Shown here piece after piece: positions 24,881 to 33,674 of a stretch of 64,000 nt of DNA (positions within the stretch are counted from its first letter, which is position 1; each line of letters begins with the position of its first letter). Position numbers and translations under genes: made by a program. The notes beneath the pieces were generated by a model. The model was not told the DNA's origin. It did no database searches and worked only from the letters and a program-made list of their open reading frames with translations. This DNA comes from Desulfobacteraceae bacterium UBA2245. Its GTDB lineage: Bacteria; Desulfobacterota; Desulfobacteria; Desulfobacterales; UBA2245. The stretch spans positions 86,850 to 150,849 of the forward strand of contig DDYB01000032.1 in the NCBI GenBank assembly GCA_002347265.1, written 5' to 3'.

Positions 24881-26592
24881 CAGCAATTCTAACTGAATAT
24901 TGTTCATTGTTTCAGGCATGGGTTTTTGTGATTTTTCAAAATTATTTTTCGCAAAGGCAAAGCCTGCGATTTTTACAACTGATTGAATTAACTCAATAAA
25001 ATAAGTCTAGACATAACCCCTAAATATTGTTATATACTCTAACAGAACACCAATATGCAGGGGTTATTGTGCACGTTAAAAAACATCTGGGCTTTAGCGC
25101 ACTGCGCAAATCGATCGGCCAGGTCTTCGGCCAGATCGATGATCGCAGGCAATCGGGCAAGGTCGATTTTTCCTTGCACGATTGCCTCATGAGCGCTTTG
25201 GCGATGATGTTTTTTCAAGACCCCTCGCTGCTTGCCTTTCAGCGCCGCATGCAAGATCGCATGCATTGCAGCAATTTAAAAACCATGTTCGCGGTAAAGG
25301 CCATCCCCAGTGACGCTGTATTGCGAAAAAACATGGACCCTATTGGTACGGAAGATATCGATCCTTGCTTTGCGATCTTGTTCAGTCACCTGCAGCGGGG
25401 CAAGCAGCTGTTGCTCTACCAATTGGATAGCGGGCATTACCTGATCGCGCTGGATGGCTCGCAGTACTTTTCTTCCGATAAAATCAACTGCCCGAGCTGT
25501 TTGACCTACAAAGGCAGCAAGAGCAAGTTGCGCTACTCGCATCAAATCCTGCAGGCCGTGCTGCTTCATCCCAATATGCGCCAGGTGATACCGCTTGCCC
25601 CGGAGCCGATCATCAGGGCCGATGGATCCGATAAAAACGACTGTGAGCGCTGCGCGGGCAAAAGGCTGATTGCCAAAATCCGCTCAACCCATCCGAAGTT
25701 AAACATCATGGTCACCGGCGATGGCCTTTACTCTAATCAGCCTTTTATTGACGCGCTCAAAGCCAATGCCATGTCCTTTGTGCTGGTGGCCAAACCCAGC
25801 GATCACAAAATCTTGTTCCAATGGGTCGAAGAACTCGATGGCCTGGCCGGCGTTGAACACATCGAGTTTTGCGACCAGAAAGGCCGGCGCCACCATTACC
25901 GCTGGATCAACCAGGTGCCGTTAAACGGCGCCCGTGGTGCGGACCTTATCAATTTTTTTGAGTATTGGCTCACCGTGGATCAAAAAGTCACCTATCATAA
26001 CAGCTGGGTTACCGACCAGACGCTAAGCAGGCAAAACATTGTTGAACTGGTCAAGGCTGGACGGGCCCGCTGGAAAATCGAAAACGAAACGTTCAATACA
26101 CTCAAAAATCAAGGCTACCATCTCGAACACAATTTCGGCCATGGCCAGCAAAATTTATCGAACAACTTTTTCGTGCTCAACCTGCTGGCCTTTTTCATCC
26201 ATCAGATCCTTGAGTTGTGCGACTCTGGCTATCAGTATTGTCGTTCAAAGTTCAGTTCCCGAAAAGAGTATTGGAACAACCTGCGCGCAGCGATCCATCT
26301 GATGCTGTTTCGTGATTTTGAACACCTGTTGCGCTATGTGGCCAATCCGCATGAAATCTGGGCTCCCGACTGACAGGCAATCTGATAACATCCCATCTTA
26401 AAAAATGATCCGTCACTGCCGATGGTGGATACCTGTTGCCATCGCCTTTCTTAAAAATCCTATGCACACTGGATCTGGCCGAAACTTGGCCGCCCAACAC
26501 TCGAAAATACACTTCCAATTGTCAACTTCGTGCCTCACCCTCCCTTTACCACCCCCTGCTTGCGTCATTTGAATGTTCAGTTAGAATTGCTG
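24881..26592 (+). mobile_element. Intact insertion sequence, ISNCY-type (1712 bp)
   Basis: Perfect 17-bp terminal IRs CAGCAATTCTAACTGAA (24881-24897) / TTCAGTTAGAATTGCTG (26576-26592), extending to 21 bp with one mismatch, around one transposase. No target-site duplication seen. Confidence 0.85.
25069..26373 (+). CDS. DDE transposase, ISNCY type (IS4-like fold)
   Basis: GTG start aligns with the paralog ATG. Catalytic LIALDGSQ, VTGDGLYS, RWKIENETFNTLK. Internal TAGACA-17-TATATA promoter at 25008-25036. Confidence 0.92.
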   Translation: MHVKKHLGFSALRKSIGQVFGQIDDRRQSGKVDFSLHDCLMSALAMMFFQDPSLLAFQRRMQDRMHCSNLKTMFAVKAIPSDAVLRKNMDPIGTEDIDPCFAILFSHLQRGKQLLLYQLDSGHYLIALDGSQYFSSDKINCPSCLTYKGSKSKLRYSHQILQAVLLHPNMRQVIPLAPEPIIRADGSDKNDCERCAGKRLIAKIRSTHPKLNIMVTGDGLYSNQPFIDALKANAMSFVLVAKPSDHKILFQWVEELDGLAGVEHIEFCDQKGRRHHYRWINQVPLNGARGADLINFFEYWLTVDQKVTYHNSWVTDQTLSRQNIVELVKAGRARWKIENETFNTLKNQGYHLEHNFGHGQQNLSNNFFVLNLLAFFIHQILELCDSGYQYCRSKFSSRKEYWNNLRAAIHLMLFRDFEHLLRYVANPHEIWAPD

Positions 26593-27196: not shown

Positions 27197-28885
27197 ATGA
27201 AGATTTCGATACAAACGGTATGTGTTGGAGTTGCGCTCGTCTTTTCCGTATTTTTTCTATCGGGCGCAAGCACTGTGTTCGGGGCAGACGGGGCGGGTTT
27301 GTTTGAACTGGAGGGCAATGCCGTCCAGGACGATACTGAGCCCCCCCCTGACGATTGGGAGACCCTTTACGGTGGCGCCGGCGCCGCTGACCCCTCTATA
27401 TTTGAGCATGAGGGTACGGGCGTGACCATCTTCACGGGCGGCCGGAAGGACATTCAGAACATTCCGGAATGGGGCTACAAGGACGGCGCTGTGCCGGACA
27501 AGGACGATATCCTCGATGCCTTTGGCGCGGCTTATAATGATAATGGAGATCTGGTTGTCTATTTCGGCGCTGACCGTATCTCCAATGTCGGGGATGCCTA
27601 TATGGGCTTCTGGTTCTTCAAGCAGCAGGTCAGCCTGGATGGAAACGGCGGGTTCATTGGAGAGCACGAATTCGGCGATATTCTGGTGCTGGTGAACTTT
27701 CCGCAGGCTACGAACGCGGAACCCCTGGTGCAGGTGGTCGAGTGGGATACCAGTTGTTCCAAAGCGGACAGCAACACCCCCACGGTCGGTCAATGCGCCG
27801 CGGCTAACCTCAGACTGCTTGCGGGCGTTTCGGGCGCAGGCGCGATTTGCTCGGATACAGGGTATGTGGGCGCCTCTGGTGCATGTGCCATCACCAACGA
27901 GGAGGGCGGCCCCTATCATCTTACGACCTCGCCATGGCCTTACACGTCCAAGGACGGGTACGTGAACCAGTTTCCGTATGAAACATTCTTTGAGGGCGGA
28001 ATCAACCTGACCCAGCTTGTCGGGGGAGACACCTGCTACAGCAGCTTTATGGCCGAGACGCGTTCTTCAAGTTCGTTCACCGCATCGCTCAAGGATTTCG
28101 TTCTGGATTCCTTCCCGGTGTGCGCGATCTCCGTGACCAAGGACTGCGCCAATCCGAGATTCAGCGCCGATGATAATTATATCATCTATGACATTGCCGG
28201 CGCGGTCACGAATGACGGTTCCGCCACGGTGTACAACGTCAGCCTTGTCGACGTTCCCGCCTTTGATTCGGGTTCCCTGAACTGGTCCGGCAGCACCGCC
28301 TCCCTGGCCGGGGGTGCGAGCATCACCTACTTGGCGACCATTACAGTACCTAAAAATCAGAACGGACCTTCGGATCAGGTGACGGCAAAGGCTTACACGC
28401 TTCCGGCAGGCGGTACTGCGCTGACCGCTTCGGCTACGGATACCTGTCCGCAACTGCAGATCAGTCCCGAGCTTTCCGTTACCAAATCCTGCAGCTCCAT
28501 CGTTACAACGATGAATGACCCCGTGCAGGTCGTGGCTCGGGTGAATGTTTCCGGCGAGGTCTGCAACATCGGCGACACGCCGTTGTTCAACGTGGCGGTT
28601 GTAGATAATGAAGCCGGCACCCTGCTCTCGGGTCAGTACCTGGTCGAGCCGGATGATCCAGCAAATCCGGGCGACACCGAAGGTGCCTGCAAGACTTACA
28701 GCGGCTCGTATATCCCGTCCGAGGCCCTTGTATTCGATGGTTCGGCATCGACCACCGATCCTTCACTGGTTTATTTCAGGGATAGCGTGACGGCCACCGC
28801 TACCGATATTTTTGGAGCCCCTGTGACGCCACAATACGCCAATGCAAAATGCCCGCTCTGTCCGGAATGTGAGGAGTGCCCGTGA
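27197..28885 (+). CDS. Exported Cys-rich protein with two DUF11-like Ig repeats (putative adhesin/matrix protein)
   Basis: AAGGAGGT SD 6 nt before ATG 27197; signal peptide; FELEGNAVQD..PPPDDW and VPDKDDILDAFGAAY domain; two VTKxC...N.G...NV..VD repeats; ends CPLCPECEECP. Confidence 0.75.
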   Translation: MKISIQTVCVGVALVFSVFFLSGASTVFGADGAGLFELEGNAVQDDTEPPPDDWETLYGGAGAADPSIFEHEGTGVTIFTGGRKDIQNIPEWGYKDGAVPDKDDILDAFGAAYNDNGDLVVYFGADRISNVGDAYMGFWFFKQQVSLDGNGGFIGEHEFGDILVLVNFPQATNAEPLVQVVEWDTSCSKADSNTPTVGQCAAANLRLLAGVSGAGAICSDTGYVGASGACAITNEEGGPYHLTTSPWPYTSKDGYVNQFPYETFFEGGINLTQLVGGDTCYSSFMAETRSSSSFTASLKDFVLDSFPVCAISVTKDCANPRFSADDNYIIYDIAGAVTNDGSATVYNVSLVDVPAFDSGSLNWSGSTASLAGGASITYLATITVPKNQNGPSDQVTAKAYTLPAGGTALTASATDTCPQLQISPELSVTKSCSSIVTTMNDPVQVVARVNVSGEVCNIGDTPLFNVAVVDNEAGTLLSGQYLVEPDDPANPGDTEGACKTYSGSYIPSEALVFDGSASTTDPSLVYFRDSVTATATDIFGAPVTPQYANAKCPLCPECEECP

Positions 28886-31318: not shown

Positions 31319-31385
31319 AAAAAAGCCTCCTTTGTTGATGGTACCGGAGGACTCCTTACTGCCCGATGCCGATAAGATGGTCTCT

Positions 31386-31473
31386 CTTCCTTCGGCAGCC
31401 CGGCTGTCCGTAATCAGTTCAGGACCCTAGACTTTGCGCCGCTGTCTTGCTACAGCGTTACCTTTTCGGGAAG
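31386..31473 (-). ncRNA. GEMM-I (c-di-GMP-I class) riboswitch aptamer
   Basis: Minus strand CUUCC-CGAAAAGGUAAC-GCUGUA-GCAA-GACAGC-GGCGCAAAGUCUAGGGUCC...GGACAGCCGGGCUGCCGAA-GGAAG. Shows P1 closure, P2 with GYRA loop, GCAAAG junction, P3 GUCC/GGAC with ACAGCC receptor; 68 nt upstream of the protease ATG. Confidence 0.88.
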
Positions 31474-31505
31474 GAGCCCTCAATCTTCAATTCTGTACAA
31501 AATTA

Positions 31506-32138: not shown

Positions 32139-33674
32139 CTACCGGATTTTTCCTCCCCGCTCCATTGTGCGGTACTGAACGGCCTCCGACACATGGGCCA
32201 GTTCGATGTCAGGCTTTTCTTCAAGATCGGCGATGGTCCGGGCGATTTTCAGTATCCGGTTGTAGGCGCGGGCCGAAAGCCCCAGTTTCTCGATAGCGTT
32301 TTCCAGAAGCGCCGAGGACGCGGTATCGATTCTGCAGAACTGTTTGATCTGCCGGCTGGCCATCTGTGCGTTGCAGTAAATGGGAAGCCTGACGAACCGA
32401 CGGGCCTGAATCGTGCGCGCCGAGGTGACCCGCTGGCGTATTTTTTCTGAGGATTCGGCGGAAAACTCCTTTTTAAGATCCCGGTAGGCGACCGCGGGCA
32501 CCTGAATGTGAATGTCGATCCTGTCCATCAGGGGTCCGGAGATCTTGGACCGGTAGCGCTGAATCTGGAGTGCGCTGCAGTCGCATCGGTGTCTGGGATC
32601 GGACAGATATCCGCACGGACAGGGGTTCATGGCGGCGACCAGCATGAAGCGGGAAGGGTAGGTGACGGTCGTTGAAGCCCGGGATATGGTGACCCGGTGA
32701 TCTTCCAGGGGCTGACGCAGCACCTCGAGTACATGTTTCTTGAATTCAGGCAGTTCGTCGAGAAACAGTACTCCGTTGTGAGCCATGCTGACCTCTCCGG
32801 GGCGTGGGCTCTGCCCCCCGCCGATCAGACCGGCATCCGAGATCGTATGGTGCGGGGATCGAAACGGACGCCGGGTGATCAGGGCCTGGTCTTTTTCAAG
32901 CATTCCCAGCACACTGTAAACCTTGGTGGTTTCGATGGACTCCTCAAAGCTCAAGGGGGGCAGGATAGTCGGCATGCGTTTGGCCAGCATGGTTTTCCCG
33001 GACCCGGGCGGCCCGACCATCAAAATGTTGTGCCCCCCGGCGGCAGCCACTTCAACGGCCCTTTTGGCGTGCTCCTGACCCAGAACTTCTGAAAAATCAG
33101 TATCCGTTTGATTCGGGGGTGCAAACAGCCCGGAAATGTCTATGGATTCGGCGGGTATCTGCTGGGAGCCGCGGCAGAATTCCACTACCTGGGAAAGGGT
33201 TCTGGCGCCGAGCACCAAGATGCCGTCCACCACCGACGCTTCCCGGCCGTTGTCCTCGGGAACGATAATGCCTTTGTAGCCGGACTGACGGGCTGCAAGG
33301 GCCATCAGAAGCGACCCTTTCACCGGTTTTACGCGGCCGTCCAGGGAAAGCTCTCCCATGATGAGATAGCGGGAAACCGTGTCCTGAGGAATGGTTCCTT
33401 TGGCTGCAAGAATTCCCAGGGCCATGGGAAGGTCAAATCCGGTTCCGTCCTTTTTGATGTTCGCCGGCGCCAGATTCACCGTGATCCGGTCATCCGGAAA
33501 CGTATAGCCGGAGTTTTGAATCGCCGACTTTACCCGTTCCCTGCTTTCTTTTACCGCGGTTTCCGGAAGTCCCACAGTGGTAAAGCAGGGAAGTCCCCGC
33601 GCTATATCTACTTCCACTTCAACCAGATAAGCATCAATCCCGATAACGGCGCTGCTCAAAACCTTGGATAGCAC
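32139..33674 (-). CDS. comM: YifB/ComM Mg-chelatase-like AAA+ ATPase
   Basis: VGLPETAVKESRERV, ITVNLAPA, GPPGSGKTM, RSPHHTIS, GVLFLDELPEF, AMNPCPCG, LSARAYNRILKIARTIADL. Confidence 0.95.
   Translation of the reverse strand: MLSKVLSSAVIGIDAYLVEVEVDIARGLPCFTTVGLPETAVKESRERVKSAIQNSGYTFPDDRITVNLAPANIKKDGTGFDLPMALGILAAKGTIPQDTVSRYLIMGELSLDGRVKPVKGSLLMALAARQSGYKGIIVPEDNGREASVVDGILVLGARTLSQVVEFCRGSQQIPAESIDISGLFAPPNQTDTDFSEVLGQEHAKRAVEVAAAGGHNILMVGPPGSGKTMLAKRMPTILPPLSFEESIETTKVYSVLGMLEKDQALITRRPFRSPHHTISDAGLIGGGQSPRPGEVSMAHNGVLFLDELPEFKKHVLEVLRQPLEDHRVTISRASTTVTYPSRFMLVAAMNPCPCGYLSDPRHRCDCSALQIQRYRSKISGPLMDRIDIHIQVPAVAYRDLKKEFSAESSEKIRQRVTSARTIQARRFVRLPIYCNAQMASRQIKQFCRIDTASSALLENAIEKLGLSARAYNRILKIARTIADLEEKPDIELAHVSEAVQYRTMERGGKIR

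Follow-up and report, generated by a model that had tools for sequence, protein, structure and literature searches.

The window, as the whole analysed stretch of 64,000 nucleotides is called here, carries on its minus strand an intact ORF that the original prediction described as a secreted metalloprotease controlled by a GEMM-I cyclic-dinucleotide riboswitch. The description of the protein was borne out. The product contains a Peptidase_M11 domain (PF05548, 42.6 bits against a threshold of 21, E = 5e-11) and the zinc motif HELGHNLGLFH (HExxHxxGxxH) at residues 361-371. Residues 24-38, near the N-terminus, form a hydrophobic segment, one further domain is NPCBM_assoc/DUF11-like, and the C-terminal domain is of the Big_9/cadherin-like kind. 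The aptamer lies in the leader of its gene. The protease gene faces a convergent gene; on one side of the pair is a DDE transposase gene (25027-26373), on the other a comM-like gene (32139-33674).

31318-29012, minus strand: gene predicted to be regulated, 768-aa M11-type metzincin, predicted to be exported (ORF, Pfam)
27197-28885, plus strand: convergent partner, 562-aa DUF7507 protein (CLIPPER_2 in the contig tables; DUF7507 2.3e-9)

The convergent neighbour accompanied the protease in every orthologous locus examined (L089-L103, from Desulfobacterota and Gammaproteobacteria). It is 529-610 aa long in most loci and 758 aa in L099, and is cut by the contig end in L092 and L102. The DUF7507 protein is a possible substrate or partner of the protease, as judged from this gene arrangement. 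Between the two genes, matches to Acido-Lenti-1 RNA (RF01687) were found on both strands in L093 (5560-5630) and L094 (3084-3154); these may represent a bidirectional terminator-like hairpin.

The aptamer and its occurrence upstream of protease homologues

When the window was scanned with Rfam 15 at gathering thresholds, two matches were obtained, one tRNA and RF01051 (c-di-GMP-I/GEMM-I). The latter covers 31472-31391 of the minus strand and the full length of the model (positions 1-87). Its score of 46.3 bits is above the gathering score of 35 bits (E = 7e-6 in the window, 8e-8 in the genome), so that the covariance-model search, suggested with the original prediction as a check, agreed with the claim of a GEMM-I aptamer. 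It is the sole GEMM-I match of the 3.1-Mb, 99.9%-complete assembly, and the Rfam scan gave no match to c-di-GMP-II anywhere in the 3.1-Mb genome. The 3' end of the aptamer is 72 nt from the AUG of the 768-aa ORF, on the same strand, i.e. in 5' leader position. The leader (31481-31316, minus strand) reads GAGGGCUCCUUCCCGAAAAGGUAACGCUGUAGCAAGACAGCGGCGCAAAGUCUAGGGUCCUGAACUGAUUACGGACAGCCGGGCUGCCGAAGGAAGAGAGACCAUCUUAUCGGCAUCGGGCAGUAAGGAGUCCUCCGGUACCAUCAACAAAGGAGGCUUUUUUAUG. A check of the sequence found all motifs listed in the prediction, each at its place on the minus strand. The parts of the aptamer are the following.

31472-31391, minus strand: GEMM-I aptamer core (RF01051 match; covariation over seven orthologues)
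31473-31469 / 31390-31386, minus strand: P1 core, CUUCC/GGAAG (sequence)
31476-31467 / 31394-31382, minus strand: full P1 helix, with A31385 and A31391-92 bulged
31394-31382, minus strand: 3' strand of P1, CG-AA-GGAAG-A-GAG, pairing with 31476-31467 (CUCCUUCC-CG); co-varies across orthologues
G31461-C31436 and U31460.G31437, minus strand: base of P2 (model alignment, pairing)
31457-31452 / 31445-31440, minus strand: P2 stem; GCAA loop at 31450-31447, with a closing A.G mismatch
31438-31432, minus strand: junction, CGCAAAG (sequence)
31433-31419 / 31413-31397, minus strand: P3, with conserved AG bulge and 5-nt loop
31425-22 / 31409-06, minus strand: distal P3, GUCC/GGAC (sequence)

Homologues of the protease were collected, their contigs were fetched, and the DNA upstream was scanned with Rfam for GEMM-I. 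Thirteen homologue leaders carry the aptamer. It was present upstream of the orthologue in a sister genome ('Desulfobacterales bacterium AnMBR.bin530', L031) and of all eight metagenome homologues (53-95% identity) with enough upstream DNA (L089, L090, L092, L093/94, L096/97, L098 and L099); L091 and L095 were left out, their contigs ending too close to the gene. At 42-50% identity, three of four sampled homologues carry it (L101 from Marinobacterium arenosum, 50%; L102 from Desulforhopalus singaporensis, 42%; L103, 50%), and the Rfam scan found no aptamer upstream of the fourth (L100, 49%). No GEMM-I was detected by Rfam within 3 kb of thirteen distant relatives (33-44% identity), mostly from Shewanella but also from Vibrio, Psychromonas and Zobellella, and the association of the aptamer with the protease family is therefore not universal. 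Immediately upstream of the riboswitch-less homologue L100 lies a gene for a VpsR-like sigma-54 activator (1-533), and a PAS-containing sigma-54 activator is encoded nearby in L096/L097. Behind the riboswitch and SD of the latter locus (2690-2725), the AUG opens a reading frame of just 11 codons (MQSRPLTILIN*) resembling the N-terminus of the protease, and the called protease ORF begins about 300 nt further on; the short ORF is a leader peptide or else the remnant of a start.

RNAalifold applied to seven orthologous aptamers recovered P1, P2 and P3. Compensatory changes on both sides were found in 8 of 25 pairs, and in the P2 stem five of the six pairs are compensated. P1 reads CUCCUUCC/GGAAG(A)GAG in the window, CUCCCC/GG(C)GGAG in L098 and CUCUGCC/GGUGGAG in L099. 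The aptamer of the sister species scored 55.3 bits, and its changes fit the fold (U.G to C-G, A.G to U.G). The leader RNA of the window is almost certainly a genuine, ordinary GEMM-I aptamer.

The original prediction was mistaken in one detail of the fold: the element AGGGUC...GACAGCCGGG, regarded as the receptor, actually belongs to P3, of which it is the conserved proximal portion including the AG bulge, and the 11-nt tetraloop-receptor columns of RF01051 are deleted in the window RNA (model alignment). The P2 loop, GCAA with A.G closure in the window, is GCAU (non-GNRA) in the sister species. We take the window aptamer to be a member of the receptor-less, GYRA-loop 'type 2' subgroup of GEMM-I. 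It is the lowest-scoring of the set (46.3 bits vs 52-72 bits in the orthologues), its P3 carries an A.G mismatch, and it has A-GCAA-G and U.G where the aptamer of L089 has C-GCAA-G and a C-G pair. To judge from the weakest score, the A.G loop closure, the P3 mismatch and the missing canonical receptor, its affinity could be lower.

The ligand-contacting bases

In the RF01051 alignment, G20, A47 and C92 of Vc2 correspond to G31462 (model position 11), A31435 and C31395, and these positions are G, A and C in all 11 leaders with alignments shown (the window and ten others). Aptamers with G20 are selective for c-di-GMP in the cases studied. Of the two guanines of the ligand, one is read by G20 on its Hoogsteen face and the other pairs with C92; the cGAMP-type GEMM-Ib RNAs have A at position 20, and the affinity of the wild-type G20 Vc2 RNA for cGAMP is about a million-fold below that for c-di-GMP (PMC6140456). 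The assignment of G31462 as the discriminating base and the choice of c-di-GMP made on its account were both upheld, and with all three contacts canonical the ligand is very probably c-di-GMP, not cGAMP. Specificity for cGAMP was rejected on the G at the G20 position; the A that defines GEMM-Ib was found neither in the window nor in the ten other leaders shown. Of the suggested likeness to Geobacter-type RNAs, the receptor-less GYRA-loop style stands, and the cGAMP-defining A20 is absent.

A second class label was also discarded. When only 500 nt were scanned, clan competition led to RF03167 (c-di-GMP-I-GGC) being reported for the window at 45.5 bits, below the cut-off of 59 bits. The consensus of this class, GACGCGAA, has G replacing A47 after GACGC, vs GCGCAAAG in the window, and A, not G, occupies this position in the window and all orthologues (GCGCAAAG or GACGCAAAG). 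RF03167 out-scores RF01051 and passes the cut-off in L099 (72.1 bits), L103 (70.2), L092 (65.1), L098 (65.0), L089 (60.0) and L101 (59.7); there, too, the label is a clan-competition artefact. These RF03167-passing aptamers (L099 2860-2935, L103 1365-1444, and those of L092, L098, L089 and L101) carry the canonical A47, and automatic annotation would place them in the GGC variant class by mistake.

The genome of the window encodes six GGDEF domains and one EAL domain. Four of the six combine GG[DE]EF with the guanine-specifying Asp, and another, a degenerate copy, is joined to the only EAL domain. This repertoire indicates that c-di-GMP turnover is present, as far as domain content can tell. 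The GGDEF domain at G000:C29:47920-48390 (minus strand) has an intact GGEEF and the sequence NDAYGHEEGN, with Asn for the guanine-specifying Asp. Other genomes of the same order contain head-to-tail arrays of five to six GEMM-I aptamers (G013:C114:690-1206; G019:C75:11273-11672 and C79:7082-7405), the densest with six aptamers in about 520 nt.

The expression platform

Downstream of the aptamer, a strand that is complementary to two others was recognized; the three are designated X, Y and Z.

31481-31466, minus strand: strand X, anti-sequestor 5' strand, made up of GAGGG (a mimic of the SD that lies outside the aptamer), CUCCUU (5' strand of P1) and CCCGA (P1 top/junction)
31366-31346, minus strand: strand Y, UCGGG-CAGU-AAGGAG-U-CCUCC; mimic of the P1 3' strand and anti-SD, pairing with X or Z
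31330-31319, minus strand: strand Z, 3' arm of the sequestor; SD GGAGG (31330-26) and spacer CUUUUUU (31325-19)

Pairing between Y and Z creates a sequestor hairpin of 11 bp (-13.1 kcal/mol), formed by AAGGAG-U-CCUCC (31357-46) and GGAGG-CUUUUU (31330-20). CCUCC (31350-46) pairs with GGAGG and AAGGAG with CUUUUU, and the SD and the spacer are buried to one base before the AUG (31318-16, minus strand), U31319 being unpaired. The same hairpin is formed, with different sequence, in all SD-type orthologues: AGGGG-U-CCUCC / GGGGG-U-CUCCU in L090, UAUGGGGU-C-CUCC / GGAG-ACUCCAUA in L093, GAGGUCUUUCC / GGAGGGAUCUC in L098, and equivalent hairpins in L099, L101, L102 and L103. This conservation supports the pairing of CCUCC with the SD, and the control at the level of the SD, that had been proposed.

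The competing pairing of X with Y consists of 11 bp between GAGGGCUCCUU (31481-71) and AAGGAGUCCUC (31357-47) and 5 bp between CCCGA (31470-66) and UCGGG (31366-62). The alternative pairing of CUCCUU (31476-71) with AAGGAG (31357-52), noticed in the original prediction, is present, and folding shows it to be part of this much longer helix of 16 bp. Its energy of -26.9 kcal/mol was reached by none of 500 shuffles of X. This anti-sequestor occupies the 5' strand and the top of P1 and four of the five anti-SD bases, and therefore it can coexist neither with the ligand-bound aptamer nor with the sequestor.

Bipartite complementarity between X and Y was found in 11 of 11 SD-type leaders, with duplex energies of -16.5 to -27 kcal/mol vs shuffle means of -10 to -13.5. 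The number of shuffles (of 500) reaching the observed energy was 0-1 in nine of the 11 leaders, 3 in L096 and 14-15 in L098. The X:Y sequences fall into two families, GAGGRCUYYUU:AAGGRGUCCUC and GAAAGAUCYUC:GAGRAUCUUUC. Within each leader X and Z are alike, both being complementary to Y, and the three co-vary as a set: GAGGGCUCCUU / AAGGAGUCCUC / GGAGGCUUUUU in the window and GAAAGAUCUC / GAGGUCUUUC / GGAGGGAUCUC in L098. The co-varying strands of L101 are GAAAGAUCCUC / GAGGAUCUUUC.

Since unconstrained RNAfold was unreliable for some orthologues (for L093 it failed to recover P1), duplex energies, shuffles and comparisons of enforced states were used instead. The window RNA was folded from the predicted start, 31495, to 31295 with either the P1 or the anti-sequestor state enforced; ligand and tertiary contacts are outside this nearest-neighbour model. 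The P1 + sequestor state, which is the minimum-energy fold, had an MFE of -62.1 kcal/mol and, with P1 enforced, an SD unpaired probability of 0.00. The corresponding values for the enforced anti-sequestor state were -61.9 kcal/mol and 0.72, i.e. the two states are isoenergetic. The SD was more exposed in the anti-sequestor state in all eight leaders tested, and the two states were within about 4 kcal/mol in six of them. In L099 and L096 the P1 state was favoured over the anti-sequestor state by about 10 kcal/mol, and the local hairpin dominated.

The original prediction had also allowed for control at the level of termination. This model was rejected: a terminator scan found no intrinsic terminator at 31350-31319, and the U-tract is unconserved (diverged orthologues read UCUCCUC, ACUCCAUA or GAUCUCU there) and paired in the sequestor. 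The hairpin in this segment has a stem of 5 bp and a loop of 15 nt unless the U-run pairs with AAGGAG. Because the hairpin is kept in orthologues with different sequence, the U6 run of the window is best read as one version of the 3' arm of the sequestor, not as a terminator tail. In L092, a strong intrinsic terminator (505-556; 12-bp stem, GUAA loop, U-tract) replaces the SD-sequestering platform, and the gene starts about 230 nt further downstream. There, the 3' strand of P1 can pair with the 5' arm of the terminator (-16.8 kcal/mol) and so provide an antiterminator. According to this folding model the antiterminator would be lost on ligand binding, which would again be OFF logic.

Two promoter-like sequences precede the leader.

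31521-31506, minus strand: candidate sigma-54-type promoter-like motif, TGGCGC-N5-TTGCT (GG 31520-19, GC 31508-07)
31772-31743, minus strand: near-consensus sigma-70-like site, TTGACA-18-TATAGT (11 of 12 matches)

The sigma-54-type motif is located about 25 nt upstream of strand X and would place the +1 near 31495, about 14 nt before X. It is the single match with at most one mismatch in 64 kb, vs 2.0 expected by chance, a number that by itself is not significant. In the sister species L031 a perfect motif (TGGCAC-N5-TTGCT) occupies the same position, and similar motifs are found upstream of the aptamer in L089, L092 and L093; the genome has one copy of rpoN. The motif is taken as a conserved positional lead, not as a result. 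A start from the sigma-70-like site would make the leader 260 nt longer, and either start includes strand X. After the sigma-70-like promoter there is a long inverted repeat (31690-31626, minus strand; CUGCGCAGC...GCUGCGCAG), partly conserved in the sister species; the frame of a 25-codon ORF inside the repeat was found not to be conserved there.

Direction of the switch and comparison with known systems

The features described above can be combined into the following mechanism. In the absence of ligand, X would pair with Y in the 16-bp anti-sequestor, P1 would be open, and with the SD and the start codon accessible the protease would be made. When c-di-GMP binds, it would bridge G31462 and C31395, with A31435 stacked between its two bases, and lock P1 (31476-67 / 31394-82), thereby withdrawing X. 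Y, freed from X, would then fold onto Z, and the 11-bp hairpin burying the SD and the spacer would block translation initiation. As P1 competes with the anti-sequestor and the two states are isoenergetic, stabilization of P1 by the ligand would tip the leader towards the sequestered SD. High c-di-GMP, as in sessile or biofilm cells, would silence the extracellular protease, and its release would follow when c-di-GMP is low. The original prediction held that ON and OFF could not be told apart from the sequence; the conserved, co-varying anti-sequestor competing with P1 in 11 leaders points to OFF. On this evidence the c-di-GMP-I riboswitch is probably a translational OFF switch for the protease, and the joint statement, that a canonical c-di-GMP riboswitch acts as a translational OFF switch for an M11-type protease, we hold to be fairly probable. 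The parts of this scheme that we infer are the binding of the ligand, the sign of the regulation in vivo, the place where transcription starts and the role of the protease.

A switch of the opposite sign, in which for example CUCCUU, the 5' strand of P1, is free as long as no ligand is bound and then covers the SD itself, draws on the complementarity of CUCCUU to AAGGAG in the SD region (31332-27) and on the existence of GEMM-I riboswitches that are ON, such as Cdi-1-1 of C. difficile (PMC6200980). However, the local hairpin of anti-SD and SD can form alongside P1, and the minimum-energy fold contains both. When P1 is enforced, the SD is 0% unpaired, and in 11 of 11 leaders the partner of the conserved SD mimic that lies upstream of P1 is the anti-SD and not the SD. 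All of this makes an ON switch unlikely. We regard it as still somewhat less likely that control is mainly transcriptional, either by intrinsic termination (CCUCC/GGAGG and U6) or by Rho. The U6 run does follow a hairpin, the L092 orthologue does use a strong intrinsic terminator, and blocked translation often secondarily exposes mRNA to Rho or decay, but against this stand the empty terminator scan, the 5-bp stem with its 15-nt loop (unless the U-run pairs with AAGGAG) and the fact that across orthologues the pairing is conserved and the U-run is not.

Two further alternatives concern the aptamer. That it senses 3',3'-cGAMP or both dinucleotides, like GEMM-Ib of Geobacter, would fit a Desulfobacterota-type MAG, GEMM-Ib being found in Geobacter, the receptor-less GYRA-loop style and the Asn in one of the six GGDEF domains (G000:C29:47920-48390). 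It is improbable in view of the missing A20 (G in the window and the ten other leaders shown), the about million-fold weaker binding of cGAMP by the G20 Vc2 RNA (PMC6140456) and the four canonical diguanylate cyclase domains of the genome. The lowest score of the family, the A.G loop closure and the P3 mismatch could alternatively be signs of a decaying relic that binds its ligand too weakly to regulate. This is very improbable: the bases that contact the ligand are all intact, as are P1, the anti-sequestor and the sequestor, and these elements are identical or nearly so in the window, L031 and L089 despite diverging flanks; the protease ORF is intact as well. The OFF switch responding to c-di-GMP remains the preferred reading.

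With Vc2 (Vibrio cholerae, tfoY leader, RF01051) the window RNA shares the three-helix aptamer, the G20/A47/C92 contacts and the 5'-leader position. It differs from Vc2 in lacking the pair of GAAA tetraloop and 11-nt receptor, having instead a GCAA loop with A.G closure, in the downstream gene, and in having a compact SD switch of three strands directly behind the aptamer. Geobacter GEMM-Ib RNAs (e.g. Gs1761) have the same fold and a deltaproteobacterial-type context, but A at the G20 position, where the window and the other leaders shown have G. The short, receptor-less P3 resembles that of c-di-GMP-I-GGC (RF03167), whose distinguishing G is absent from the window and the orthologues.

The closest functional precedent is Cdi-1-12 of C. 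difficile. When c-di-GMP is high, this GEMM-I riboswitch lowers expression of the metalloprotease gene zmpI about 60-fold, and the adhesin substrates of ZmpI are induced under the same condition (PMC6200980). As predicted for the window, Cdi-1-12 (zmpI/PPEP-1) is a class-I c-di-GMP riboswitch that is OFF for a secreted zinc metalloprotease, the gene of which adjoins one for a surface or exported protein (PMC6200980). The protease families are unrelated, however: the enzyme of C. difficile is an M34 Pro-Pro endopeptidase and that of the window an M11-like metzincin carrying cadherin-like domains. C. difficile is a Firmicute, and the regulation was measured there as a drop in transcript abundance. 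In C. difficile the neighbour has its own class-II ON riboswitch; no second riboswitch was found in the window case.

It is possible, if doubtful, that the riboswitch, the M11-cadherin protease and the exported DUF7507 protein constitute a mobile, self-contained 'c-di-GMP-off dispersal module'. Such a module may have moved between Desulfobacterota and Gammaproteobacteria with the complete RNA switch, and it may be the sole RNA output of c-di-GMP signalling in the window genome. The DUF7507 neighbour would be the matrix or adhesin substrate of the protease, by analogy a diderm counterpart of ZmpI/CD2831. The sigma-54 promoter would add a second regulatory layer, and in one homologue without aptamer a VpsR-like activator might replace the riboswitch.

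What the locus adds is a readable switch design and a link between riboswitch, protease and partner that is conserved across phyla; the knowledge of the class as such is unchanged. It is a well-resolved example of a GEMM-I aptamer wired to translation by a three-strand exchange, and as the strands co-vary across phyla, the sequence alone is enough to tell the regulatory sign. For this uncultivated Desulfobacterales lineage of anaerobic reactors, the extracellular metzincin, predicted to be repressed by c-di-GMP, and its partner are assigned as the only riboswitch-controlled target, and they are a candidate for biofilm-matrix remodelling or dispersal in anaerobic-reactor communities.
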